A stretch of DNA of 64,000 nt from an uncultured Desulfovibrio sp. (GCA_913063155.1 CAJXYU010000009.1:75760-139759), one strand, 5' to 3'. Counted from the stretch's first letter, positions 1 through 17,733 are shown. The notes: generated by a model from the sequence alone, not told the origin. A program made the numbers and translations.

Positions 1-1209
1 CAGATCTTCGCCCTCGGCGTACATGCCGCTGGCCTGCCATGCGCCGATACCCAGGAATACGGCCTCGTAGCCGTCCGCCTTCAGGGAGTCGATGTCGTAG
101 TCTTTCCCGAACTTGGATTTCAGGCGCACGTCGATGCCCAGATCAAGGATGCCTTGGATTTCCCAATCCAGATCTGACTTGGGCAGCCGGTATTCCGGAA
201 TGCCGTAGCGAAGCTGTCCGCCCAGGGCGGGCATGGCGTCGAAGATCGTGGGGTTGTGTCCCAGTCTGCGCAGGAAATAGGCGCAGGAAAGCCCGGCCGG
301 TCCGCCGCCGATGACGGCAATCCTGCGGCCCGTGTCCTTGGCGCAGGGAATGGACAGGTGCGAGCCGGAATGCATCTCCCGGTCGGCCACGAATCGTTTG
401 AGCATGTTGATGCCCACGGGCGCGTCCACGTGCGAGCGACGGCAGGCCGTTTCGCAGGGGCGTGGGCAGACGCGTCCGCAGGCGATAAGCAGCGGATTGC
501 GTTCACGGATGGTGTTCACCGCTCCCTCGAAGTCGCCGGCCTTTACCTGCTCGATGTAGCGGGGAATGTTGATCTGTCCCGGGCATTTCTGTCGGCATGG
601 AGCCAGGCAGTCGGTGGTTTCGTTGAGGTGCAGCAGTCGGCTGGACATACTGACCACGGAGATGACTCCGCGCGGGCAGGCGTCCGCGCATTTGCCGCAG
701 GCCCTGCATTCGTTGGGGTTGACCACGGGCAGGCCTTCGGGCCCCATGTGGATGGCGTCGAAGGGGCAGACGCTGACGCATGTGCCCAGGCCCAGGCAGC
801 CTTCCGGGCATATCTTGGAGCCGCCGTGCAGCATGTGCGCTGCCTGGCAGTCCATGACGCCCTTGTAGGCGAAGCGTTCCTCGGCCCGTGCGCCTCCCGT
901 GCAGTCGCGGAAGGCGATTTCCGGTTCCCGTTCTTCAATTTCCTGGCCCATGATGGATGCGATGGCGGCCATGGATTCCAGGTCGGCGACAACACAGGCC
1001 CCGGCTGCGGCCTTGCCCGCCACAATGGCCGCAGCGCATCCCGAGCAGCCGGGGAAGCCGCAACCGCCGCAGTTGGCGCCGGGCAGCAGATCCTCGACCT
1101 TGGCGATGCGCGGATCCTCCTTGACGAAGAGAAGTTTGGAGGCCACGGCCAGCACGGTGGAAGCGCCCAGTCCCAGGCCGAACAGAGTCAGTGCGGAAGT
1201 GGTGATCAT
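1..1209 (-). CDS. rnfB: RnfB (Fe-S subunit of the Rnf complex) fused to a GltD/NfnB-like NAD(P)H-FAD oxidoreductase module. Partial: the C-terminus lies beyond the left edge.
   Basis: My own translation of the reverse strand: ATG at 1209, frame open for 403 codons to position 1. It is absent from the ORF track because there is no stop in the window. It has an N-terminal TM helix, CGGCGFPGCSGC, and the ferredoxin motifs CLGLGTCVSVCP and CRACGKCADACP. These are followed by CRQKCP...GRVCPRPCETACRR and IAVIGGGPAGLSCAYFLRRLGH...GGQLRYGIPEYRLP (GltD-type). Confidence 0.8.
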   Translation of the reverse strand, partial: MITTSALTLFGLGLGASTVLAVASKLLFVKEDPRIAKVEDLLPGANCGGCGFPGCSGCAAAIVAGKAAAGACVVADLESMAAIASIMGQEIEEREPEIAFRDCTGGARAEERFAYKGVMDCQAAHMLHGGSKICPEGCLGLGTCVSVCPFDAIHMGPEGLPVVNPNECRACGKCADACPRGVISVVSMSSRLLHLNETTDCLAPCRQKCPGQINIPRYIEQVKAGDFEGAVNTIRERNPLLIACGRVCPRPCETACRRSHVDAPVGINMLKRFVADREMHSGSHLSIPCAKDTGRRIAVIGGGPAGLSCAYFLRRLGHNPTIFDAMPALGGQLRYGIPEYRLPKSDLDWEIQGILDLGIDVRLKSKFGKDYDIDSLKADGYEAVFLGIGAWQASGMYAEGEDL

Positions 1210-1222
1210 ATCTGCGTTCCTC

Positions 1223-1804
1223 CTAGATCATGCCTTTGAAGGCGAAGAAGGCCAGGGACATGAGCCCGGCCATGACCAACCCCACGGGCGTGCCGCGCAT
1301 GGCTCTCGGAACCCGGCGTATTTCCAGCTTTTCGCGAATGCCGGCCAGCACCACCAGGGCGAGCATGAATCCCAGGCCCGAGGCGGTGGCGAAGGCCACG
1401 GCTTTCACGAATCCGAATTCGTTGCGTTGGCAGATGAGCGCGATGCCCATGACCGCACAGTTGGTGGTGATGAGCGGAAGGAAAATGCCCAGCGATTTGT
1501 ACAGGGGCGGGACCATTTTCTTGAGAAACATCTCCACGAACTGCACCAGGGAGGCGATGACCAGGATGAAGGCCAGGGTCTGGAGGAAGCCGAGGCCCAG
1601 CGGCGCCAGCAGGTACTCCTGTACCAGCCAGGTGATGGCCGCGGCCATGACGGCCACGAAGACCACGGCCCCTCCCATGCCGATGGCCACGCTGGTCTCC
1701 TTGGAGGTGCCTATGAACGGGCAGTTGCCCAGGTATTGGGCCAGGACGATGTTGTTGACGAATATGGCGGCTATGAACAGCAGAAAATACTCTTGCATCG
1801 TCAT
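1223..1804 (-). CDS. rnfA: Rnf complex subunit A
   Basis: 193 aa polytopic protein with RnfA/NqrE-type sequence (FVNNIVLAQYLGNCPF, LPLITTNCAVMG). Position in the rnf gene order. Confidence 0.95.
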   Translation of the reverse strand: MTMQEYFLLFIAAIFVNNIVLAQYLGNCPFIGTSKETSVAIGMGGAVVFVAVMAAAITWLVQEYLLAPLGLGFLQTLAFILVIASLVQFVEMFLKKMVPPLYKSLGIFLPLITTNCAVMGIALICQRNEFGFVKAVAFATASGLGFMLALVVLAGIREKLEIRRVPRAMRGTPVGLVMAGLMSLAFFAFKGMI

Positions 1805-1810
1805 ATCCTC

Positions 1811-2479
1811 CTATTTGGAACCGCAGGCGCCACAGGAACCGCAGTCGTGCGTGGGACCGTCGATGGGAGCCAGTCCCTTGCGCTTGCGTTGCAGGTTGGT
1901 GAAATAGTTCATGGCACAAAGCAGCAGCCCGAGGGAGACGAAGGCCCCGGGCGCTTCGGCCATGAAACTGACCGGTTCGAATCCGGCCCAGGCCACGTGA
2001 TGTCCGAAGAGTTGTCCATGGCCGAAGAACTCCCGCAGGCCGCCCAGGAAAGTCAGGGACATGGTGAAACCGATTCCCATGCCCAGACCATCGGCAATGG
2101 CCGGCAGAGGCGGGTTCTTGGAGGCGAAGGCCTCGGCCCGGCCCAGGATGATGCAGTTGACCACGATGAGTGGAACGAAGATGCCGAGTTGCTGATAGAG
2201 AGGGTAAACATAGGCCTGCATGAGCAGTTCCACGGCCACCACCAGGGAGGCGGCGATGACGATGAAGCAGGCGATGCGAACCTTGGCCGGGATAAGATTG
2301 CGTACCAACGAGACCAGCAGGTTGGACAAGGTGAGCACGAAGATGACCGCCATGCCCATGCCGAAACCGTTTTCGGCAGTGGAGGTAACGGCCAGTACCG
2401 GGCAAAGCCCCAGCACCAGCTTGAACGGCGGCAGATCCTTCCAGAGCCCCTTGGAGAATTCCTTCCAGAGTTTGTTCAT
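1811..2479 (-). CDS. rnfE: Rnf complex subunit E
   Basis: 222 aa with RnfE/NqrD-type sequence (LGLCPVLAVT, VPLIVVNCIILGRAEAFA). Gene order. Confidence 0.95.
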   Translation of the reverse strand: MNKLWKEFSKGLWKDLPPFKLVLGLCPVLAVTSTAENGFGMGMAVIFVLTLSNLLVSLVRNLIPAKVRIACFIVIAASLVVAVELLMQAYVYPLYQQLGIFVPLIVVNCIILGRAEAFASKNPPLPAIADGLGMGIGFTMSLTFLGGLREFFGHGQLFGHHVAWAGFEPVSFMAEAPGAFVSLGLLLCAMNYFTNLQRKRKGLAPIDGPTHDCGSCGACGSK

Positions 2480-2490
2480 GACAACCTCCG

Positions 2491-3072
2491 TTACGGCCAG
2501 GTCTTGGCTATTTCGGGTTTCAGGGCGTCAAAGAGCTTTGCGGCTTCCTGCACGGCGGTCACCGTGCCTGTTGAGGAGATGGTGGCCCCGGCAATGGCGT
2601 CAATGTCTCCATTGTGAGCCTTGAGCCTGGCCCGTCCGGGAGACAGCCCTTTGAATTGGGAGGTGAAGCCGTGCTTGGCTATCCGCGCTCCGATGCCCGG
2701 GGTTTCCTTCATGGTGGTGATGCCTATGCCGGACAGGTTTCCGGATGCGGTGTCGAAACCGACCATGACCCCGATGTTGCCGCCATATCCCTTGCCGAAG
2801 ATTTCGAAGGCCAGACCCGTGAGTTTGCCGTCCTTCATGGCCGGAAAGAGAGTGATTTCATCTTCAGCGCCGGGACGGGCGAACTTCTTTCTGTCCTTGA
2901 TGGGATTGTTGTCGTAATCGTGCAGCACCTGAGTCAGGGACGGGGCCTGGACATAGGTGAGCACCTGTTCTTCGATCCGTGCCTCCGTAGCGTTCTTGAG
3001 GGCGGCCAGGGTCAGGCCCGAAAGACCGCAGATCACCGACAGAACGACCATCATCTTGATCATTTCCTTCAT
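2491..3072 (-). CDS. rnfG: Rnf complex subunit G (FMN_bind domain)
   Basis: 193 aa with an N-terminal anchor. The C-terminal flavinylation motif DAIAGATISS fits D-x-x-x-G-A-T. ATGA overlap with rnfD. Confidence 0.9.
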   Translation of the reverse strand: MKEMIKMMVVLSVICGLSGLTLAALKNATEARIEEQVLTYVQAPSLTQVLHDYDNNPIKDRKKFARPGAEDEITLFPAMKDGKLTGLAFEIFGKGYGGNIGVMVGFDTASGNLSGIGITTMKETPGIGARIAKHGFTSQFKGLSPGRARLKAHNGDIDAIAGATISSTGTVTAVQEAAKLFDALKPEIAKTWP

Positions 3073-4037
3073 GTCAGAGTCCTCCCTGCGGCCTTTTTGC
3101 CGAACGGTTTCGGCTTGATGCGGTCCAACAGCGGCGCAGCCAGGTTGGCCAGCAGGATGGCGTAGGGCGTACCGTCTGGATACACGCCGTAGACCCGGAT
3201 TATGATGACCAGGACTCCGGCCGTGAGCCCGAACAGGGCGGCCGGGATCTTGCGCATGGGCGAACTGGAGGGGTCAGTGGCCAGGAAAAAGGCTCCGAAT
3301 ATAACACTGCCTGTGAGCAGGTGGAACATGGGCGAGGCGTATTGTGCGGGATCGGCCATGCGGAACAGGCCTGCGGTGAGGAGTACGCCCGCGAGCATGC
3401 CTACGCTTACGCCCACCTTGATGTGCTTGCGGATGGCCAGAAACAGGCCGCCGATGAACAAGGCTCCGGTCTGCACTGCGCCCAACCCGCCGAGCTGCCT
3501 GCCCACCATGAGCGAGTCGAGGTCGTAACCCTTGATGGCTTCCACGCCGAAGTGTTTGAGTTGCGACAGCGGATAGTTGAGTTCAGACGTCAGCATGGAG
3601 GCGTTGATATCCATGTGCGCGGGCCAGGAAAGGCTGCACACGGCCCAGCCCACAAGCGGGGCGCAGAGGGGACTGCCGCCCAGGCCGCCGAAGATCATTT
3701 TGCCCATGATGATGCTCACGGCGCTGCCGAAGACGACCATCCACCATGGGGCGGAGGCGGGGAGCAGAAAGCTGAAGGTCAGGCCCACGGTGAAGGCGTG
3801 CAGGTCGTCCACCTGGGACCGGCGTTCCATGATCTGATCGCAGAGAAACTCGGCCACCACTGCGGCGGCCGCGCCCAGACACATGACGCGCAGGGCATCC
3901 ATGCCGAAGTGGTGCACCGCCAGCAGGGCTGCGGGCATCATGGCGATGAGTATGGCGCGCATGCGGCCCTTCACGGTTTTTCCGCAATGGGCGTGGGGTG
4001 GCGCAGTGACGGTCAGGGTAGGGGGCAACGGTTTCAT
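3069..4037 (-). CDS. rnfD: Rnf complex subunit D
   Basis: NqrB/RnfD-like polytopic protein. I placed the start at MKPLPPTLTV (ATG 4037), one base after the rnfC stop. The longer track ORF (to 4292) overlaps rnfC and is Arg/Pro/Ala-rich junk. Confidence 0.9.
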   Translation of the reverse strand: MKPLPPTLTVTAPPHAHCGKTVKGRMRAILIAMMPAALLAVHHFGMDALRVMCLGAAAAVVAEFLCDQIMERRSQVDDLHAFTVGLTFSFLLPASAPWWMVVFGSAVSIIMGKMIFGGLGGSPLCAPLVGWAVCSLSWPAHMDINASMLTSELNYPLSQLKHFGVEAIKGYDLDSLMVGRQLGGLGAVQTGALFIGGLFLAIRKHIKVGVSVGMLAGVLLTAGLFRMADPAQYASPMFHLLTGSVIFGAFFLATDPSSSPMRKIPAALFGLTAGVLVIIIRVYGVYPDGTPYAILLANLAAPLLDRIKPKPFGKKAAGRTLT

Positions 4038-4038
4038 C

Positions 4039-5157
4039 CTATCCCTCCCTTTGGGGTTCGAGTTCGCACTGGGCGGCAAAGGCCAGATGTTGTTTTGCCA
4101 GCCGGATGTATTGGAGCAGGGGGCGGCGGGAGATGCAGAAGAACCCGCACATGCCGCATTCCATGCAGGCGTCGATGTCGTGGTCGGCGCATTTTTCGTA
4201 CATGCGGAACTCGGCATAGCCCGAAATGGTGGACGGATCGATGCGGGCCGGACAGACCTGAATGCATTCACCGCAGCCAATGCAGGGGGCATCGATCACT
4301 GCCGGGTATTCGCCTTTCCTGATCACGAACAGGCCGTAGGTGTTTTTGTCCACGCCCTGCTGCGGGGAGTGGGCCGCTTCGCCTCGCATGTGTCCGCCGA
4401 GTACCAGGGTGTCGCCGTCCCGCACGCTCAGGCCCGCCTCGGACAGGACTGTGTCGGCAGGAGTTCCGACGGTGACCACGAAGTTCCGCTCGTTGGCCGT
4501 GAGGACCACGTCCACGCAGGGCAGGCCTGTTTCCATGATTCGGCCCAGTTCGAATAGAGTTCCCACGGAGAGGACCACCGTGTCCTCAGGAGCTTCCTTG
4601 CCGGTGACGGCCGCAACCACCAGCGGATTCAATCCGTTGGGGTATCCCTCCTTGATATGGACGGGATCGCAGCCGTTCAGGCTGTTGGGTCTGCCTTGCT
4701 CCACGGCCAGGACGCATTTTGCGGGGTTATAGATTTTCCTGGCGGTCTCCAGACCCAGGCTCAGCACGCTGCCGAATTCAGTCAGCATGTGGGTGAAGGC
4801 CGTGACGCCCGGCTCCGGGTCCACACCGTTGATGATGAGGGTGTCGGTCGGACCCTGCGGGAGCTTGGCCCCCAATTCGCCGAGCACCTGCCGCAGAGCG
4901 TCGCCCCTGAGGCCGGACAAGTCCTTGGGCACGGGCTGTACTTCTTTGCCTGCCGTGATGCATATGTAATAAGGATGAACCTCGGTGATCGTGCCGGAAA
5001 TGGGAGCATAGCGTCCTCCGCCGATGTGGACGCCCCGGGCCACGTCCTGTCCGCACTGGACTTCCGGGCGGTGGCAGGACATGGGTACACGAACCACCTG
5101 GGGCGCGGGCAGGACCTTGAGGGGCCCCTCGCGGACGATGGATTCAAAAAGTTTCAT
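4039..5157 (-). CDS. rnfC: Rnf complex subunit C
   Basis: RnfC-like with two C-terminal 4Fe-4S motifs (CIGCGECIQVCP, CMECGMCGFFC). Start chosen at MKLFES (5157), preceded by GGAGAAA just after the dhcA stop. Starts at 5169 or 5232 remain possible. Confidence 0.85.
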   Translation of the reverse strand: MKLFESIVREGPLKVLPAPQVVRVPMSCHRPEVQCGQDVARGVHIGGGRYAPISGTITEVHPYYICITAGKEVQPVPKDLSGLRGDALRQVLGELGAKLPQGPTDTLIINGVDPEPGVTAFTHMLTEFGSVLSLGLETARKIYNPAKCVLAVEQGRPNSLNGCDPVHIKEGYPNGLNPLVVAAVTGKEAPEDTVVLSVGTLFELGRIMETGLPCVDVVLTANERNFVVTVGTPADTVLSEAGLSVRDGDTLVLGGHMRGEAAHSPQQGVDKNTYGLFVIRKGEYPAVIDAPCIGCGECIQVCPARIDPSTISGYAEFRMYEKCADHDIDACMECGMCGFFCISRRPLLQYIRLAKQHLAFAAQCELEPQREG

Positions 5158-5170
5158 GGCTTTCTCCATC

Positions 5171-5917
5171 TTATCGAATGTGACACTTGTTGCAGGAACC
5201 TTCGCCATAAGGTCCCCTGCCTTCCTTTTCATGGCAATCCATGCACTGGTCGTGGAAGGCGTTCATGCGGGTGAGCACGAGATCCTTGGTGGGACCGTCA
5301 TGGCATTGGGCGCATGAGGAATAGTCGCCCTGGTATAGGGTCATATCCACTTCCTTGTGGCAGGATTTGCAGCTGGTGAGCCCCTGCTCGAACATATCCT
5401 CGTGACAGGTGTGGCAGCGGGCGTGGGCGGCTTCGGCCAATCCCGGCATGTCCCCGTCCCGCTGGCCTTCGTGACAGTTGCCGCACTTTTGGGGTTCGGG
5501 CTCTATGCTCTCATCGTGGTGGCAGGACCGACAGTCGTCAGCATATTCTTCGTGTTCGTCATGGTCGAAGATGATTTCGTCGTATTCGGTATGGTGACAT
5601 TGCACACAGTATTGTTTGTCCGGAAAGGAGGCGATGTGCCTTTTTACGAAATCGTCGTCGAAGGCCACCGGATGACAGGAACCGCAGGCCAGGGTCTGTC
5701 CCCCTGCGCCTGCGCTTTCATGGTGGCATTCCGCACAGGCTATTTCGTAGTTTCGGTGGTGAACAAGGTGGGAGAAGATGACGTTGCCGCCGTTGTTCTT
5801 GAACAGAATCCTGACGGGCATCTCGGTTTTCGCTTCTGTTCTCATGTAACCCACCGCAGCCGTTGCCAGGAGCACGGCAACCGCGACGGCTGTTGGAACG
5901 TATCGCCTGTTAAACAT
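5171..5917 (-). CDS. dhcA: Decahaem cytochrome c, membrane-anchored or periplasmic
   Basis: Ten CxxCH motifs counted in 248 aa, with a hydrophobic N-terminus. It lies directly upstream of rnfC, as in Desulfovibrio rnf loci (from memory). Confidence 0.85.
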   Translation of the reverse strand: MFNRRYVPTAVAVAVLLATAAVGYMRTEAKTEMPVRILFKNNGGNVIFSHLVHHRNYEIACAECHHESAGAGGQTLACGSCHPVAFDDDFVKRHIASFPDKQYCVQCHHTEYDEIIFDHDEHEEYADDCRSCHHDESIEPEPQKCGNCHEGQRDGDMPGLAEAAHARCHTCHEDMFEQGLTSCKSCHKEVDMTLYQGDYSSCAQCHDGPTKDLVLTRMNAFHDQCMDCHEKEGRGPYGEGSCNKCHIR

Positions 5918-10433: not shown

Positions 10434-11171
10434 CTATTTCCTGAAGATTTCCTTGATTGCGGTTATGCCCATCTTGCGGCGCAGGAACCCGAGCTGGTTC
10501 TGCAGGGGCAGTTCTTTGGGGCAGACGTCTTCACAGGCCAGCAGGCCCATGCACCCGAACACGCCGGCGTCGTTACCCACCAGTTCGAAAAACTGTTTAT
10601 CCGAGCGTTCGTCGCGCGGGTCTATGTGGAAGCGGGCGATACGGTTCAGGGCCGCTGCGCCCAGGAAGTCGTCGCGCAAGCGGGCCGTGCCGCAGGCGGC
10701 CACACAGCAGCCGCATTCAATGCAGCGTTCCAACTCGTAGATGTCCTCGGCCACCTTGTTGTCCATGCGTTCCTCTTCTTTGGTGGGATCGAAGATCTTG
10801 GACGTGTGGACCCAGGATTCCGTCTTGGCGTACATTTCACGAAACCAGACGCCCGTGTCCACGGCCAGGTCGCCGATGAGCTTGTAGACCGGCAGTGGAT
10901 GCAGGGTGATCTTGCCGGACTGGTCCTTTGTCTTGGTCTGGCAGGCCAGGCCCGGTCGTCCGTTGATGACCATGGCGCACGCACCGCAGATGCCAGCTCG
11001 GCAGCAGAAGTCGAAGATCAGGCTCGGGTCCTGCTCCTCGCGCAGCCTGTTCAGGGCGATGAACAGGGTCATGTTCGGCGTTTCTTCAAGCTTGTAGGTC
11101 TGCATCCGGGGGGCAACCTCTGGTTTCTGAGGGTTGTACCGGAATATTTCGAATTGCAGTTCTCGTCCCAT
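10434..11171 (-). CDS. frdB: Fumarate reductase / succinate dehydrogenase iron-sulfur subunit
   Basis: 245 aa with 2Fe-2S (CRAGICGAC), 4Fe-4S (CIECGCCVAAC) and 3Fe-4S (CMGLLACEDVCP) motifs. Confidence 0.9.
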   Translation of the reverse strand: MGRELQFEIFRYNPQKPEVAPRMQTYKLEETPNMTLFIALNRLREEQDPSLIFDFCCRAGICGACAMVINGRPGLACQTKTKDQSGKITLHPLPVYKLIGDLAVDTGVWFREMYAKTESWVHTSKIFDPTKEEERMDNKVAEDIYELERCIECGCCVAACGTARLRDDFLGAAALNRIARFHIDPRDERSDKQFFELVGNDAGVFGCMGLLACEDVCPKELPLQNQLGFLRRKMGITAIKEIFRK

Positions 11172-11198
11172 GATTGCTTCCTCTATTGGAATGGGTTG

Positions 11199-13058
11199 CT
11201 ACTTTTTGGTGATGGTCCGTTCCTTGACCATGTTTTCATCCGCCGGGATGATGGTGCCGCCGCCGTAGCCGCGATCGCCCGGGGGAATTTCGAAGATCTG
11301 GGAGGAATCCTCGTACATGAGGTCCGGCTTGGCGGCGTCTTCCGTGGGCCAATAGGCCAGGGTTCGGGTCAGCCAGTCGCGGTCGTTGCGTTCCGGGAAG
11401 TCTTCACGGTTATGGGAACCGCGGGATTCCGTGCGGTTCAGGGCGGCTGTGGCGATGCACATGGCCAGCTTGATCTGTCCCCGGATCTTGAGTGCGGAGC
11501 CCAGTTCGTGGTTTACGCCCGCGCCGTCGGAGTGCAGGCCAACTCGAGACGAGCGGTCCAGCAATTTTTCCAGGGTTTCGACGGTCTCTTCCAGGTCCGG
11601 TCCGTTACGGAATACGAAACAGCCCTTCATGAGTGCTTCCTGCATTTCGTGGCGCACGTCGTAGACGCTTTCATTGCCGTTGCGGCCGGAGATGAGATCC
11701 TTGATGCGCTGCTCCTGACGTCTGTACTGCTGGTTGATGATTTCTGTCTTGAACTTGGTCTCGTATCCCTTGAGGAATTCCACAATCTTGTCACCGATGA
11801 TACCGCCTGCGACCACGGTTTCGGCCAGGGAGTTGCCGCCCAGGCGGTTGAAGCCGTGCATATCCCAGCAGGCCGCCTCGCCCGCGCTGAACAGGCCTTT
11901 GAGGCCGTAGGCCGCGCCATCCTTGTTGGTGCGGATGCCGGCCATGGTGTAGTGCTGGGTCGGACGAACCGGAATGAGTTGTTTGCGGGGATCGATGCCC
12001 AGGAAGTGGTGGCAGATGTCGTCCACTTCGCGCAGTTTGTGGGAGATGTGCTGGTCGCCCAAATGCCGGATGTCCAGCCAGAGGTGCTCGCCATAGGAAC
12101 TCTTGACGCCCTTGCCTTCGCGCATGTGATGGGTCATCCAGCGGGAGACCACGTCGCGGGAGGCCAGTTCGGCCTTTTCCGGCTCGTAGATGTGCATGAA
12201 GCGTTCTTCATTGACGTCAAGCAGGGTGCCGCCGTCGCCGCGGCAACCTTCGGTCACCAGGATGTCCGTGGGAACGATGCCCGTGGGATGGAACTGGATG
12301 GCCTCGGGATTGCCGATGGGCACCATTCCGGTGTCCAGAGCCAGGATGTGGCCTCCTCCGTCGCAGATGACCGCATTGGTGGTGGCCTTGTAGATACGGC
12401 CGAATCCACCGGTGCAGATGGCAGTGGCCTTGGCCAGATATGTTTCCAGTTTGCCTGTGCGCAGGCAGCGGACGATCGCCCCCATGCAGGTCTCTTCATC
12501 GTGTATCAGGGCGACGGCTTCCTTGCGGTCCATCACGTTGATGCCCAGTTCGGCGCAGCGGTTGTCCATGGTGCACATGACTGCGTGACCCGTTCCATCC
12601 GAGGTATAGCAGGTGCGCCATTTGGCGGTGCCGCCGAAAGCCCGGGCCGTAATCAGTCCCTCATTTTCCGGGTTTTCGAATTTTTCGAATTTCTGGCCGC
12701 CCTTGAAATAAAAGGACTGGCCGGGAACCACGCGATTCCAGGGCACGCCCCAGTGGGCCAGGCGGCGCATTTCAATGGGGGCGGCGTCCGCGAAGAGCCG
12801 GGCGACTTCCTGGTCGCAGCCCCAGTCGGAACCCTTGACCGTGTCGCCGAAATGCACGTCCGTGTTGTCGCCTTCGCCCATGGCGCAGTTGCCGAGGGCC
12901 GCCTGCATGCCCCCCTGCGCCGCCGAGGAATGGGAACGGCGGGCCGGGACAATGGAAAGACATATGACGTTGAAGCCGTTTTCCGCGGCTTCGACCGCCA
13001 CGCGTTCACCGGCCAGGCCTGCGCCGATGACCAGGAGATCGGAATAGAATGTCTGCAT
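11199..13058 (-). CDS. frdA: Fumarate reductase / succinate dehydrogenase flavoprotein subunit
   Basis: 619 aa. N-terminal FAD fold (LLVIGAGLAGERVA) and the covalent-FAD region RSHSSAAQGG. Confidence 0.95.
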   Translation of the reverse strand: MQTFYSDLLVIGAGLAGERVAVEAAENGFNVICLSIVPARRSHSSAAQGGMQAALGNCAMGEGDNTDVHFGDTVKGSDWGCDQEVARLFADAAPIEMRRLAHWGVPWNRVVPGQSFYFKGGQKFEKFENPENEGLITARAFGGTAKWRTCYTSDGTGHAVMCTMDNRCAELGINVMDRKEAVALIHDEETCMGAIVRCLRTGKLETYLAKATAICTGGFGRIYKATTNAVICDGGGHILALDTGMVPIGNPEAIQFHPTGIVPTDILVTEGCRGDGGTLLDVNEERFMHIYEPEKAELASRDVVSRWMTHHMREGKGVKSSYGEHLWLDIRHLGDQHISHKLREVDDICHHFLGIDPRKQLIPVRPTQHYTMAGIRTNKDGAAYGLKGLFSAGEAACWDMHGFNRLGGNSLAETVVAGGIIGDKIVEFLKGYETKFKTEIINQQYRRQEQRIKDLISGRNGNESVYDVRHEMQEALMKGCFVFRNGPDLEETVETLEKLLDRSSRVGLHSDGAGVNHELGSALKIRGQIKLAMCIATAALNRTESRGSHNREDFPERNDRDWLTRTLAYWPTEDAAKPDLMYEDSSQIFEIPPGDRGYGGGTIIPADENMVKERTITKK

Positions 13059-13070
13059 GTTTGAACCTCC

Positions 13071-13718
13071 CTAGCCCAGAAGCATGAAGCGGATCAGGGT
13101 GATGACGCCTATGACCATGAAGGTCAGGAAAAGCGTATTCTCGCCCTTTTTGAAAGCGGAGCGGCCGCTGTCCTTGACGAAACCCCATTTCACGGCAATT
13201 CGGTAGAACCCGATGCTCACGTGCAGTTCGACGCAGGGCAGCAGGATCATGTAGAAAATGAACCAGAATCCGCTTTGGATGCGTGCTGCGGACTTGGCGG
13301 CGGTGATGGGCAGGTCGGTGAGTACCACCCACATGTGAATGGAGCCGAGCACCAGGATGACCATGGCGGTGACAGCCTGGATGACCCACAACCAGGTATC
13401 TCTGTGCTTTATCATTCTGGCGTGTCGCCAGATGGTGACTTGCCCATCGGCCCGGAAGGGGATCTTGCGCGCCGCGAGCACAAAGTGCAGCAGGAAGGTC
13501 AGGAATATGAGGGGGCCGCCCACCTGAGCCATGTAGGTGGCTTCGAAAAAGTATGCGATGGCGTTCATGATTTTCGGTGAGATGACCACCGACGAGACCA
13601 GCAGCATATGGCACCACATGAACAGGATAAGCCCTGCTCCGGTGAGCATCTGCAGCCAGTCGAGAACAGCGTCGCGTTTGGACGGGCGCACGACATGCAT
13701 GGTTGCATCCACGGACAT
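13071..13718 (-). CDS. frdC: Fumarate reductase dihaem cytochrome b membrane subunit (type B, W. succinogenes-like)
   Basis: 215 aa with about 5 hydrophobic spans and conserved His residues. First gene of frdCAB. Confidence 0.8.
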   Translation of the reverse strand: MSVDATMHVVRPSKRDAVLDWLQMLTGAGLILFMWCHMLLVSSVVISPKIMNAIAYFFEATYMAQVGGPLIFLTFLLHFVLAARKIPFRADGQVTIWRHARMIKHRDTWLWVIQAVTAMVILVLGSIHMWVVLTDLPITAAKSAARIQSGFWFIFYMILLPCVELHVSIGFYRIAVKWGFVKDSGRSAFKKGENTLFLTFMVIGVITLIRFMLLG

Positions 13719-13849
13719 AACTACTCTCCTTTTTTGCGGATTCTCCGCAGTTGATCCAAGTGTTTCGGGTGAATCTCAAGACCCCGCATGCCGGGAGCAT
13801 GTGGTCCGGAGAAGGATATCCAAAACAGTATAAGGGGCCGATCAACCTA

Positions 13850-13880
13850 CATCCGGCGCAGGCCGTTTGCGCGCCGGATG
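13850..13880. promoter_or_regulatory. Perfect 10-bp-stem inverted repeat, 132 nt upstream of the frdC start
   Basis: catccggcgc (13850-13859) pairs with gcgccggatg (13871-13880), with an 11-nt loop. No T-tract on either strand. Function unknown. Confidence 0.3.
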
Positions 13881-14912
13881 CCGGGTTAGTTGCCTATCAT
13901 CAAGCCCGGCAGGGCCTTGAGCGACTTGGATAATCGTATATTCTTATGCCTATGGGAATTGGTGCGCGTGATCTGTCTGGCGGTGATGAGGGCCGCCGAA
14001 CACGCGTTGTCGAATTTGAGCCGTCGAACGAAGAAAGTCCGTTCGGGAATGGAAGGGGCAGGCGCCGTTGTCCGGCCCGTGCGCCCCTCGCTTCGAAGTT
14101 GTTGAAGCAGGGGCCGGTTACAGTGAATGCCGCCTGGATACGAAGCCCTGTTGCGGGTTCGTGGGGGCGGAGAGTAGGGTGACGATGCTTGCGGGATGGG
14201 GCGCGTTGCAAACCCCGGGATTGATGCGCAGTGAAACCTGAACTGGCCCAAAGCCTTCACCGGAGTGGCGGGCGCACTGACGACGCGCTTGCCGCCGTTC
14301 GGGCGCGGGCGCCTGGACCGCAGGGAAAATCTTGTAGCCGAATACCTGTTTCCGATGTTTCGTTTTGTCGCGAAGCGACGTTTGGTACGAATCGGATGCA
14401 TGGTCTTCGCCTTTCCGGAAAATCCGGTGATTATAGGTTGTTACGCATTCTTCGACTTGTCACTTGTTTACATTTTTGAGAAAGCGGACAGAGCTTGTGG
14501 CAAGAATGTAAACCTGATAACCCTTGTAACATGGCTTAATTGAACGGTCAATCAATTCAGTGAAAATACTTGACTTCTTTTTCATATTTTGACCTTTATC
14601 GTGTCTTTTTCTTACTTATCCGCTTTGGATGGCGCACTTTTTTGTCAAATCAACCAGGAAAACAAGGTTTCGATTCGTTTCAGGATTGCTCACCACGGAA
14701 GTGGAGATCGGCGGAAAACGTGAATAGATGCCCAACCTATCCGATTGTATTGTCGGAAAATATATTTTGGCTTGATGTAATTTTTTAAGCATACTAATAA
14801 ATTGGGATTACATGCTGTGCATGGGGCGACGGCCTTTGCTCTTGTGAGAAGACCGTCGGGGGGCCATGGATTGTGGGATACCGGCGCGGCATGTGCATTT
14901 GGAAGTTATTTC

Positions 14913-14928
14913 GCCGCGTTTTCGCGGC
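14913..14928. promoter_or_regulatory. Candidate TetR operator palindrome
   Basis: GCCGCG-TTTT-CGCGGC, a perfect 16-bp palindrome 23 nt upstream of the TetR ATG. Confidence 0.3.
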
Positions 14929-14950
14929 ATGTTCTTTAAGAGAGTAGGGT

Positions 14951-15523
14951 ATGACCAAGAAAGAAAACATCCTTGTTGCAGCTCAGGAACTGTTCGCCAA
15001 GTACGGATACGCCGGCACGACCATGAAGATGATATCCGAGCGGGCGGGGGTGGCCGCAGGGTTGGTTTCCCATTATTACGGCAGCAAGGAGAACCTGTTC
15101 ATGGTGGCGGGGCAGGAAATGATAGACTCCATGCTTCGGATGTTGCGAACGAGGACGGCCACGGCCGAGGATGGCAAACAGGCGGTGGGCCTGTTCGTCA
15201 AGGCATATCTCGATTTCACCCTGCAGAACCAGGCAACTTTTCCCACCTTGATCCGCTGTTCCCCGTTCAGCGACGACAATCCGGACCTGGACCGTGAAAC
15301 GATCGGCGAAAAATTCAAGCTTCTCATGGAGGAGATAGAACTGCACTTGCGTCGAGGCATTGAAGACGGCTCGATTGCGGCCGTTCCCGTGGAAGAGACC
15401 GCCTTCATGATCTACGGCTGTATTATCGGTGCGGTCCGTACCGTATTCCTGACTCCTTATGATGTTCCCGGACTGTATGAAGAGGCCTGCCAATTTGTCA
15501 TGCGCAGCCTGGAAAAACATTAG
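14951..15523 (+). CDS. TetR/AcrR-family transcriptional regulator
   Basis: 190 aa. N-terminal HTH ILVAAQELFAKYGYAGTTMKMISERAGVAAGLVSHYYGSKENLF. Confidence 0.9.
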   Translation: MTKKENILVAAQELFAKYGYAGTTMKMISERAGVAAGLVSHYYGSKENLFMVAGQEMIDSMLRMLRTRTATAEDGKQAVGLFVKAYLDFTLQNQATFPTLIRCSPFSDDNPDLDRETIGEKFKLLMEEIELHLRRGIEDGSIAAVPVEETAFMIYGCIIGAVRTVFLTPYDVPGLYEEACQFVMRSLEKH

Positions 15524-15546
15524 CGGCTTTCAACAGGAGGTGCCTT

Positions 15547-17733
15547 GTGAATAATGGCGCCGCAACCAATACAAACGCCGTGACCGCAGTCATGGTCGCC
15601 GGTTTTCTCGGAACCGTAGGCCTTGGGGTGCTTTCCTTTGCGTTGCCCCTGTTCGGCTTTGACGCCAAGGTGGGCGGGACATGGATAGGAACGGCCTTCT
15701 CCGGGTATTTTCTCGCCCGCCTCATACTCGCGCCCCTGGCGGGCTTCTGGGCGGACCGTCTAGGGCCGCGTCCGGTGCTGCTCTGGGCTTCGGTGGTCGG
15801 CGCGCTCCTCCCCCTGATGCATTTCTTTATTTCAGGAATTTACTGGTTCCATGTGCTCCAGTTCGGCCTGGGCCTGGCCGGCGGGTTCATCAAGCCCGTG
15901 AGCATGGCCGTTCTCGGGGCCGCAACGTCCAAGGACCGGCTGGGCGTGGTTTTTGGACGCTATTCTGCCCTTATGAACGCAGCCTTTTTTTTGGGGCCGC
16001 TCCTGGGTGGAGTGCTGTACTATAACCGCTCCTTCACCCCGGTGATTCTCTTTTTGTCCGCAACCATGCTCGTGGGGTTGGCTGTTTTCCTGCGTTATGT
16101 CCCTCAAGACCTGCATACCCGTCTGGCTCAGAAGCCTCGGCAGGAATCCGAAGCGGCTCCGGAGCAGGAGACCGGGTTCGCCGAATTGCTGCTGGCCATT
16201 GTGGGACGCACCGCCGGAGTGGCCGTGCTGCTGGCCTTTTTTCCAGTCATGTTGGCCCAGGAAATTTCCAAGGACAGTTTGGTCATTGGGTTGATTTGTA
16301 CGGTACCGAGCTTCGTGGCATGCGTGGGGTTGGCCCTTATTCCCGGGCGTATTCGGCTTTCCGGACAGGCGCTGACCGCGGCTCTCGGCATTCTGATCAG
16401 TTCCGTGAGCCTGTTTCTGCTCGGCGAGTTGCATTCCCTGTGGGGCGTGGTGCTGTCTGGAGCTGGAATCGGAGTTGGTCGCGTCATTTCCATCCCCGCC
16501 ACCATGAGCCTTGCGGCCCTGTCCAGCCGCGACCAGGGGCGGGTGTTCGGGGTTGCCAACGGTGCGGCCAGTCTTGGGTTCGTGCTCGGTCCGTTGGCCG
16601 GGGGGCTGGTGCTGGAGCATTCCATGGCCGTGGCTCCGGTGTTCAAGATTTTCGGCATCGTGGGGCTGGCGTTGTGCGTGCCCATGCTTATGAGTTCTTT
16701 GCGCCGCAGTGAAGTGTTCGACCGTCGGACTGTGAGTGGTGTGGGGCTGGCCGTCATGGTGGCGCTGTTGGCCTTTGCTCCCCTGCAGTTGGATGCCCCT
16801 GCAAAGCAGAGCGCCGACGGGCTCTATCATTATGGCGGCTCGGCCATGGGGACGGTGCTGCACATGACCTTGGAGGCTCCGAACAAAGACGTGGCCGACA
16901 AGGCTGCCACCAAGGCCAGGGAACGTATCGCCACCTTGCAGCACGAATTCGATTTTCGCTACCGGGAGGGCTCGGTCGGTCGGGTGAACCTCAGGGCCGG
17001 AGGGCGCGGCGCACGTGTCTCCGAGAATGCCTACGCCCTTATCGAGCGCGCTTTGGACTTCGGTGGGAAGACCCATGGAATCTTCGACATCACCATTGGC
17101 GCGGTCACGGTGTCGCCCTTGTATTTCGCACGCAGCGAAGAGGTGGCCAAGGCCAAGCGTACTCTCATCGACTACAGGCTTGTGCGGCTTGATCCCGGGG
17201 AGCGGAGGGTGACCTTGCCCAAGCATGGCATGGCCATCGACCTTGGCGGCATCGCCAAGGGGGCCGTCATTGACGCTGCCGTTGCCAGCCTGCGCAGAAG
17301 CGGGATCAAGGCCGGCATCGTGGAGGCAGGGGGCGACTTTTATTGCTTCGGGGACAGGGATTGGACCGTGGGTATCCGACACCCGCGGGAGGATCGTGTC
17401 TTGGGCGCCATTTCCGTGCGTGAAAAGGGCGTCTGCGGCTCCGGTGACTATTATCAATATATAATTCATGAAGAAAACGGGAAGGAAGTGCGCAGGCATC
17501 ATATTTTGGACGTGGGAACTTTGCGGTCGGCATCGCAAAGCATCGGCGTCACGGTGGTGGCCGAAAATGCGGAATTGGCCGATGCCCTGGCAACGACGCT
17601 TTTCATCGCCGGCCCGAATGAGGGCCGGGACATTTTGCAAAAATCCTTTCCGTCGGCGGCAGCCATGTGGGTCCTCCCTGATCTGGGCGTCGAGTTCACG
17701 GATAATTTCCCCTCAATATCCCCTGAAAAATAG
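15547..17733 (+). CDS. apbE: MFS transporter (12 spans) + extra TM span + ApbE-family FAD:protein FMN transferase, in a single ORF
   Basis: 728 aa. GTG start with AGGAGG 6 nt upstream. MFS motif-A-like GFWADRLGPRP. Thirteenth hydrophobic span VSGVGLAVMVALLAFAPLQL. ApbE motifs MGTVLHMTL, IDLGGIAKGAVID, EAGGDFYCFG, GSGDYYQY, ADALATTLFIAG. Confidence 0.85.
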   Translation: MNNGAATNTNAVTAVMVAGFLGTVGLGVLSFALPLFGFDAKVGGTWIGTAFSGYFLARLILAPLAGFWADRLGPRPVLLWASVVGALLPLMHFFISGIYWFHVLQFGLGLAGGFIKPVSMAVLGAATSKDRLGVVFGRYSALMNAAFFLGPLLGGVLYYNRSFTPVILFLSATMLVGLAVFLRYVPQDLHTRLAQKPRQESEAAPEQETGFAELLLAIVGRTAGVAVLLAFFPVMLAQEISKDSLVIGLICTVPSFVACVGLALIPGRIRLSGQALTAALGILISSVSLFLLGELHSLWGVVLSGAGIGVGRVISIPATMSLAALSSRDQGRVFGVANGAASLGFVLGPLAGGLVLEHSMAVAPVFKIFGIVGLALCVPMLMSSLRRSEVFDRRTVSGVGLAVMVALLAFAPLQLDAPAKQSADGLYHYGGSAMGTVLHMTLEAPNKDVADKAATKARERIATLQHEFDFRYREGSVGRVNLRAGGRGARVSENAYALIERALDFGGKTHGIFDITIGAVTVSPLYFARSEEVAKAKRTLIDYRLVRLDPGERRVTLPKHGMAIDLGGIAKGAVIDAAVASLRRSGIKAGIVEAGGDFYCFGDRDWTVGIRHPREDRVLGAISVREKGVCGSGDYYQYIIHEENGKEVRRHHILDVGTLRSASQSIGVTVVAENAELADALATTLFIAGPNEGRDILQKSFPSAAAMWVLPDLGVEFTDNFPSISPEK

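Follow-up and report, generated by a model that had tools for sequence, protein, structure and literature searches.

A 64,000-nucleotide (nt) stretch of DNA from an uncultured Desulfovibrio sp. (GCA_913063155.1 CAJXYU010000009.1:75760-139759), referred to below as the window, encodes a protein in which a transporter of the major facilitator superfamily (MFS) is joined to ApbE, the transferase that attaches flavin mononucleotide (FMN) from flavin adenine dinucleotide (FAD) to proteins. The open reading frame (ORF) call on the window returned a single uninterrupted frame of 728 amino acids (aa) with a GTG start at 15547..17733 (+), as an earlier note on this DNA had claimed; the start given there, 14951, belongs to the preceding TetR-family gene (14951..15523), and the fusion begins at 15547. 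Pfam placed both anticipated domains in the one polypeptide, MFS_1 (PF07690) from residue 16 (E = 1.2e-38, 133.3 bits against a cut-off of 33.4) and ApbE (PF02424) over residues 434-707 (E = 3.6e-58, 197.6 bits against 25.6, profile positions 1-265 of 266). These were its only Pfam matches, and no MATE or ECF-S/T homology was detected in the protein. The gene is laid out as follows, with transmembrane helices abbreviated TM and the AlphaFold2 model AF2.

15547..17733 (+), the whole MFS-TM13-ApbE fusion gene, 728 aa (ORF call, Pfam, homologue alignment, AF2)
15535..15540 (+), Shine-Dalgarno sequence AGGAGG, 6 nt 5' of the GTG start of the fusion
15577..16698 (+), MFS permease half, residues 11-384, 12 TM helices (Pfam MFS_1, hydropathy, AF2)
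16699..16728 (+), predicted cytoplasmic loop after TM12 (LRRSEVFDRR) with four Lys/Arg (loop charge; mean of 2.6 Lys/Arg across 19 homologues)
16729..16788 (+), TM13, residues 395-414, predicted to take the chain to the periplasmic side (hydropathy, AF2 helix 393-416)
16843..17712 (+), ApbE (FAD:protein FMN transferase) domain, residues 433-722 (Pfam, phmmer, Foldseek, motifs)

The product is a single inner-membrane polypeptide consisting of a 12-helix MFS permease, a positively charged cytoplasmic loop, a 13th helix and a complete ApbE domain. The DNA is 58% G+C (GC), and a 602-aa antisense ORF (15832..17640, -) lies within the gene. Codon-position GC (0.64/0.46/0.72) identified the plus frame as coding; on this ground and on the domain matches of the plus frame, the antisense ORF was dismissed as a high-GC artefact.

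The fusion is conserved across the Desulfovibrionaceae and their relatives, and is thus a gene found among marine sulfate reducers. A word-indexed search of 5.8 billion proteins yielded 22 clusters (90% identity) with both Pfam domains, 41-81% identical, and HMMER, run exhaustively against 1.84 billion representatives, returned about 17 clusters at the 50% identity level that match over their full length (713-774 aa); next in the HMMER ranking came ApbE-only and MFS-only proteins. Altogether, full-length homologues at 40-81% identity were found in many genomes, including Salidesulfovibrio onnuriiensis, several Pseudodesulfovibrio, Desulfovibrio gilichinskyi, a Desulfatiglans metagenome-assembled genome (MAG) and metagenome contigs, so that the survey of related genomes suggested in the earlier note showed an architecture that is not strain-specific. 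The databases label these proteins merely as 'MFS transporter' or 'FAD:protein FMN transferase'. That an assembly error or frameshift has joined two separate genes is hardly credible, because the architecture is conserved: it is unbroken in the complete genomes of several species and also in numerous assemblies made independently, and the junction (loop plus TM13) runs without frame breaks through an alignment of 19 members. An artefact is hinted at by a few shorter database entries (331-455 aa), among which P0042, P0175 and P0182 hold an incomplete MFS half. Purifying selection acts on both halves of the fusion: in the comparison with the orthologue of S. onnuriiensis, the ratio of nonsynonymous to synonymous substitution rates (dN/dS) is 0.13 for the MFS half and 0.07 for the ApbE half, values that are approximate since dS is about 1.3. 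Mean pairwise identity is 42% in the MFS half, 55% in the ApbE half and 20% in the linker plus TM13. A search with the ApbE domain by itself was used solely to collect stand-alone relatives, as the full-length fusions were missing from its list, which is unexplained. Among candidates for additional fusions, a 778-aa stop-to-stop ORF (L038) and a 510-aa ORF (L026) were set aside because they contain no Pfam domain N-terminal to ApbE, and the long ApbE proteins P0126, P0059, P0152 and P0169 because their partners are unrelated (thioredoxin-like, YbeY, glycosyl hydrolase and HEAT).

Much is known about ApbE enzymes (PMC12052999, PMC4767422), and the C-terminal half of the fusion can be compared with them closely. 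Among solved structures, this half is closest to Listeria FmnB (7esa, phmmer E = 1e-28), Thermotoga TM1553 and Treponema pallidum Ftp, and Foldseek gave target-normalised TM-scores of about 0.8 to FmnB, Ftp and ApbE structures. The motifs AMGT, DxGGIAKG, GGD, SGDY, HH and D679-ALA-T683 are invariant or nearly so in the 19 homologues, the invariant residues including D565, G567/G568, K571, G595-D597, S632-Y635, H651/H652, D679 and T683, and the FAD-binding, metal-binding and catalytic motifs align with those of FmnB 7esa. Judged by these residues, the domain, already described as complete in the earlier note, looks catalytically intact. It resembles ApbE of Escherichia coli and Vibrio cholerae, T. 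pallidum Ftp and Listeria FmnB in its fold, in its FAD and metal motifs, in its (here predicted) extracytoplasmic site and in the presence of a protein bearing the substrate motif, RnfG. The difference lies at the N terminus: known ApbEs are about 300-350 aa long and occur as lipoproteins, as signal-anchored proteins or in soluble form, whereas in the fusion a 12-helix transporter and one further helix replace the signal peptide. ApbE fused to a functional partner has a parallel in the trypanosomatid fumarate reductase with an N-terminal ApbE (PMC12052999), although there the enzyme is intracellular and joined to its own protein substrate, while here it is joined to a transporter and would face outward. 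The closest stand-alone relative of the fused domain (53% identity; L008:4801-6677) adjoins a gene for a 222-aa FMN_bind protein, and its other neighbours (ZnuABC-like, DUF4198 and FeoA genes) suggest a metal-assimilation flavinylation system.

Hydropathy of the query and of the alignment located 12 spans within residues 11-384 and a 13th at 395-414. The AF2 model, calculated from the 19-sequence alignment with a mean confidence (pLDDT) of 82 and a predicted TM-score (pTM) of 0.66, shows the 12 helices of the MFS half, a further helix over residues 393-416 and an ApbE domain of alpha/beta type, and its helices match all 13 spans, in accord with the span count first read from the sequence. In each of the 19 homologues, the predicted cytoplasmic loops carry 12-23 Lys plus Arg and the predicted periplasmic loops 1-5; the TM12-TM13 loop LRRSEVFDRR contributes four in the query and 2.6 on average. 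TM13 is hydrophobic in 19/19 homologues despite about 20% identity, and where the fusion has TM13 the closest stand-alone ApbEs (47-57% identical to the domain) start with a signal peptide or lipobox. From the positive-inside bias, the AF2 model and the signal peptides of the relatives we strongly infer that the ApbE domain lies in the periplasm, which agrees with the 12+1 topology and the position outside the cytoplasmic membrane put forward in the earlier note. The topology is a prediction from hydropathy, charge bias, AF2 and relatives.

An FMN_bind protein is encoded in the rnf operon at the start of the window.

1..5917 (-), rnf operon: multihaem cytochrome c, then rnfC, D, G, E, A and B, with rnfB running off the start of the window
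2491..3072 (-), RnfG, the likeliest substrate encoded in the window (Pfam FMN_bind, E = 7.7e-17; DAIAGAT at residues 158-164, nt 2581-2601)

The acceptor motif DAIAGATISS, which the earlier note had pointed out in RnfG, sits within the FMN_bind domain, and RnfG is the sole called gene product in the window that matches D..[STA]GA[TS]. The ApbE domain probably flavinylates periplasm-facing FMN_bind proteins, foremost RnfG, encoded 12 kb away, a reading that has good support. Two observations concern other Rnf subunits. By eye, RnfD (3069-4040, -) has no obvious flavinylation motif of the [ST]GAT type, unlike RnfG. RnfB (window 1-1222, -; L010:10602-12698) is a long form, with the usual Fe-S N-terminal part followed by a GltD-like half made up of Fer4_20 and an NAD(P)-binding Pyr_redox_2 domain; it measures 698 aa in L010 and goes with the clade that has no stand-alone rnf-linked apbE.

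The relation between the fusion and rnf was examined in 80 loci around RnfA relatives from species-representative genomes, which were scanned with hidden Markov models built from both halves of the fusion. In the closest relative found (L010, a Desulfovibrionales MAG; RnfA 86% identical), rnfA, the long rnfB (10602-12698) and a fusion gene (13184-15487) follow one another on one strand. In a second locus (L019; RnfA 74%), the fusion (12760-15045) begins at most about 170 nt after rnfB on the same strand. Pfam confirmed both domains in these two proteins, which fall in different clades of a neighbour-joining tree, one of them basal. Twenty other loci have a stand-alone apbE about 1-3 kb after rnfA; 19 of these are labelled Desulfovibrio, Desulfovibrionaceae, Mailhella, Bilophila or similar (RnfA 64-72%), and the other is a Desulfobacterium MAG (L044; RnfA 61%). 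Five other close relatives with enough flanking sequence (Maridesulfovibrio and Pseudodesulfovibrio; RnfA 75-85%) have no ApbE gene within 10 kb downstream. A relaxed search of the 80 loci for any MFS gene near rnf-apbE found none beyond the two fusions and one marginal match about 6 kb upstream of rnfA (L077, E = 7e-4). Because the fusion occupies the slot after rnfB in two loci and the five close relatives have no apbE there, we infer, with good support from an observation that rests on two loci, that in the clade of the window the fusion takes the place of the rnf-linked stand-alone apbE, sometimes literally.

Parallel to the rnf linkage of the fusion, unfused relatives of its transporter half are linked to Na+-NQR. 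The nearest MFS-only relatives (P0024-P0027; 402-404 aa) are 30-33% identical to the MFS half and share with it Q105, R221, motifs A and C and the basic residues at positions 58 and 116. Such paralogues lie immediately 5' of nqrABCDEF, on the same strand, in D. inopinatus and D. gilichinskyi, and a metagenome scan with the unfused paralogues added three more loci, all with the mfs-nqr order, so that the association holds in 5/5 loci, the number on which it rests.

L090-L094 (e.g. L094:9941-18644), mfs-nqrABCDEF(-apbE) cluster in D. inopinatus, D. gilichinskyi and three metagenome contigs

L094 is the only locus that reaches past nqrF, and there a stand-alone apbE follows. The D. gilichinskyi assembly contains both a fusion and an nqr-linked unfused paralogue. 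The two complexes classically known to depend on ApbE are Rnf and Na+-NQR. With the fusion in the rnf slot and the paralogues at nqr operons, the MFS subfamily therefore tracks ApbE-dependent complexes, a distribution that is hard to explain unless it serves flavinylation.

Members of the superfamily are recognised by 12 helices in two six-helix bundles, by motif A and by an MFS_1 match; the MFS half has 12 helices, motif A and an MFS_1 match above threshold. Motif A, noticed earlier as a motif-A-like sequence, occupies residues 66-75 between TM2 and TM3 (G66-x3-D70-R-x-G-x-R) and is conserved in the 19 homologues. Antiporter motif C is defined in the MFS literature as GxxxGPxxGG in TM5; here it reads FLGPLLGG, with G150 and P151 invariant and G154 nearly so. 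The position of the motif B arginine is held by an invariant Gln105. Across the homologue alignment no conserved acidic residue lies inside any helix, and the conserved intrahelical charged residues are solely basic (R/K58, K/R116 and the invariant R221), a pattern that fits an anionic substrate such as FAD and is suggestive.

The retention of motifs A and C, the dN/dS of 0.13 and the identity of 42%, against 20% for the linker, argue that the 12-helix part is maintained as a working transporter. These same data bear on the proposal that it is a mere membrane anchor or scaffold for ApbE, perhaps holding it near Rnf, with no transport activity. Many ApbEs need just a lipid anchor or signal anchor, and the gene neighbourhood of the fusion is variable, as such a role would allow. 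A single helix would do for anchoring, however, and TM13 already provides one; besides motifs A and C, many invariant Gly, Pro, Arg and Gln residues are retained in this region, with its dN/dS of 0.13 and its 42% identity against 20% for the true linker. Unfused paralogues, moreover, cannot anchor anything, yet they are kept at nqr in all five loci. We regard the anchor proposal as decidedly unlikely.

A transporter of this general type could also be a conventional DHA1-type pump for drugs or toxins, under TetR control, that became fused by chance to a functionally unrelated ApbE. A TetR gene does lie 23 nt upstream, and the best characterised homologues are NorA, the Tet pumps and MdtG; DHA1 antiporters (NorA, Tet(A) and MdtG) and VMAT share with the fusion the 12-helix MFS fold and motifs A and C, and supply its best sequence and structure matches. 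The closest solved structures of the MFS half, NorA and VMAT2 (E = 2.5e-10), are nevertheless only about 18-20% identical to it, and the best scores against the NCBIfam efflux models, including those for DHA1 NorA, Tet and MdtG proteins, are 36-52 bits, far under cut-offs of 131-600. NorA E222 and D307, which are mutated in deposited structures and which we take to be the essential protonation sites of NorA, align to L229 and V313 of the fusion. The acidic residues of the NorA type are thus replaced by Leu and Val, the motif B Arg by Gln, and the intramembrane charges are all basic. TetR is missing in five of the eight contexts with readable upstream DNA, the fusion is retained down to 40% identity, and the nqr link of the unfused paralogues would be unexpected for a drug pump. 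A chance fusion to such a pump is very unlikely, and the grouping with drug pumps in a strain-specific fusion that the earlier note had considered was not seen. By its conservation, motifs and residues, the 12-helix part is selected as a working transporter and is not a typical cation or drug:H+ antiporter.

For Rnf, Na+-NQR, the maturation of nitrous oxide reductase and many redox systems outside the cytoplasm, flavinylation by ApbE is indispensable, and FAD is synthesised only in the cytoplasm. Our preferred reading, to which we give a probability of roughly 0.55, is that the MFS half exports cytoplasmic FAD and that the tethered periplasmic ApbE flavinylates RnfG and possibly other FMN_bind proteins. 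FAD made in the cytoplasm would be carried by the MFS half across the inner membrane and released beside, or into, the active site of the tethered ApbE; FMN would then be transferred to the target threonine, with release of adenosine monophosphate (AMP). In the mfs-nqrABCDEF-apbE clusters, the unfused paralogues would do the same job for Na+-NQR. The earlier idea that the MFS half may supply FAD to the transferase or handle its products gains two circumstantial supports from the comparison of loci, the rnf-apbE slot and the nqr-linked unfused paralogues, and this comparative evidence makes the MFS half a strong candidate for the carrier that brings FAD across the membrane.

The solute could instead be another one of relevance to ApbE, through re-uptake of AMP or transport of FMN or riboflavin, with FAD arriving by another route. 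AMP and adenosine diphosphate (ADP) inhibit ApbE/Ftp enzymes (PMC4767422), motif C marks antiporters, the conserved basic residues would suit any anionic nucleotide, and the tie to ApbE-dependent operons does not separate AMP, FMN or riboflavin from FAD. Against this, FMN is not usable by ApbE (PMC5655446), AMP re-uptake alone leaves the supply of FAD unexplained, and the export of FAD is the single step on which ApbE strictly depends, with no known carrier in these organisms. We consider another solute unlikely. A further proposal would combine the two activities: this MFS subfamily may represent a third, so far unrecognised class of bacterial FAD carrier, dedicated to ApbE, that perhaps works as a FAD-out/AMP-in exchanger and binds nucleotide phosphates through its conserved intramembrane Arg and Lys residues, as in organophosphate:phosphate antiporters. 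This is quite unlikely, but if it were true, FAD would be channelled straight into the transferase and the inhibitory AMP taken back, so that flavinylation of Rnf and Nqr would be self-balancing, with no free periplasmic FAD.

Several points weigh against FAD export coupled to RnfG flavinylation. Linkage to rnf was found in only two of nine fusion contexts; elsewhere the neighbourhood is variable (frd, PFOR or a flavodiiron gene) and the fusion gene often apparently monocistronic. The fused ApbE is nearer to FMN_bind-linked stand-alone ApbEs (53% identity) than to the rnf-linked Desulfovibrio ApbEs, which score 75-138 bits against 430-510; since it is unlike the latter, the replacement of the rnf-linked enzyme would be functional and not a matter of orthologous descent. 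The view of the source genome is the 64-kb window, and the region 3' of rnfB lies beyond its edge. The AF2 model was read for the positions of the helices and the fold of the domains. As for the solute, the nearest characterised relatives, NorA and VMAT2, are antiporters of cationic drugs and amines, albeit at about 18-20% identity, the argument from basic residues is suggestive only, and FAD is a candidate put forward from sequence and gene context.

The surroundings of the fusion gene were compared among the genomes and contigs that carry it.

Window, tetR and fusion divergent from a frdCAB-fumarase-malic enzyme-DASS cluster; an amino-acid ABC transporter downstream; rnf operon 12 kb off on the other strand
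L001, S. onnuriiensis (81% identity), same TetR plus fusion / frd arrangement
L002, D. gilichinskyi (41% identity), same TetR plus fusion / frd arrangement
L004, P. cashew, and L007, P. pelocollis, fusion gene alone, divergent from PFOR, no TetR
L005 and L006, metagenome contigs with an identical protein (P0016), fusion gene alone, adjoining a flavodiiron gene, no TetR
L003, Desulfatiglans MAG, fusion gene 203 nt from the contig end, upstream side not readable

The divergent pairing of 10434-13718 (-) with 14951-17733 (+) is kept in S. onnuriiensis and D. gilichinskyi and not in other Pseudodesulfovibrio. A functional link to the frdCAB-fumarase-malic enzyme-DASS cluster was considered and set aside; the synteny is absent from the loci compared outside S. 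onnuriiensis and D. gilichinskyi. FrdA of this type carries histidyl-FAD, which is independent of ApbE. The adjacency is treated here as retained gene order or shared regulation, and TetR control common to the frd cluster and the fusion is one possibility.

Regulation in the lineage of the window was examined in the region upstream of the fusion, which holds the following features.

14951..15523 (+), TetR-family regulator, 190 aa (Pfam TetR_N)
14913..14928 (+), inverted repeat GCCGCG-TTTT-CGCGGC, 22 nt 5' of the TetR start codon, a candidate operator or RNA hairpin

The regulator matches TetR_N with E = 3.3e-15 (56 bits against a cut-off of 24), while its C-terminal ligand domain stays below threshold. 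The TetR gene does stand directly 5' of the fusion, as the earlier note had it, though the gap from its stop to the fusion start is 23 nt and not 24; this short gap, with no terminator-like site within it, suggests that the two genes are co-transcribed. S. onnuriiensis and D. gilichinskyi likewise encode a 190-aa TetR at this position. Overall, TetR linkage occurs in three of the eight readable contexts (counting the rnf-linked L010 and L019, and L005/L006 as one), and it is lineage-specific. In the lineage of the window the TetR repressor probably controls expression of the fusion, which is the weakest step of the proposed mechanism. The repeat at 14913-14928, described earlier as a perfect palindrome, instead consists of two 6-bp inverted arms separated by 4 nt that are not palindromic. 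In S. onnuriiensis the corresponding position holds a comparable repeat whose arms differ by compensatory changes (TGCCGCA-N4-TGCGGCA), and the repeat is not conserved in D. gilichinskyi. It is also one of seven terminator-like hairpins found here, against 5.9 expected from shuffled sequence. A promoter and terminator scan gave nothing above chance, and Rfam detected no FMN riboswitch or other RNA element in 13600-15700, just a sub-threshold CRISPR-repeat match. Other features of this region are a direct repeat, CGCGGCATGT, present at 14886-14895 and at 14923-14932, where the second copy overlaps the right arm of the inverted repeat; an unusually long frdC-tetR intergenic region (13719-14950, 1.2 kb), with GC falling to 0.43-0.47 at 14250-15000; and an AT-rich block at about 14759-14800 that is conserved with S. 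onnuriiensis and promoter-like in appearance.

To our knowledge, the only known bacterial FAD exporters are the MATE proteins Bfe and YeeO and the Firmicute ECF system. The supply of FAD to periplasmic ApbE has been described as an unsettled question for which the MATE exporters Bfe and YeeO are candidates (PMC5655446, PMC3551548), and in Firmicutes the ECF exporter FmnA/EetB supplies FAD, its genes colocalising with apbE and rnf (PMC9973259). The remark in the earlier note that the route of FAD to periplasmic ApbE is ill-defined was therefore apt in that the issue is acknowledged, and too broad in that these MATE and ECF systems are known. Bfe of Shewanella and YeeO of E. coli are secondary transporters thought to carry FAD into the Gram-negative periplasm, as the MFS half is proposed to do, but they belong to MATE and not to the MFS, are unfused and are unlinked to apbE genes (PMC9973259). 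Listeria FmnA/EetB resembles the fusion in the proposed logic of a dedicated exporter feeding an extracytoplasmic ApbE and in genetic coupling to apbE, rnf or nqr; it is an ATP-driven ECF system of other taxa, coupled through its gene neighbourhood, whereas the fusion is covalent and its unrelated secondary MFS transporter is assigned a transport role from sequence. The resemblance to both systems would be one of functional analogy and not of family membership. An MFS partner or a fusion is mentioned neither in a 2025 ApbE review, a 2021 survey of flavinylation clusters (PMC8238504) or a 2024 preprint (PMC10979944), nor in what full-text literature searches returned, an absence that is no proof that the fusion is undescribed. 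What is known already is the enzyme and the logic of an exporter paired with ApbE; what is new is the transporter class and the covalent fusion.

The covalent joining of a transporter to ApbE serves as a 'Rosetta stone' in pointing to one specific candidate for the FAD carrier, and the nqr-linked paralogues give it independent support. The question of how FAD is supplied to ApbE in these bacteria thereby becomes directly testable, and the annotation of such proteins, now labelled just 'MFS transporter', would improve.

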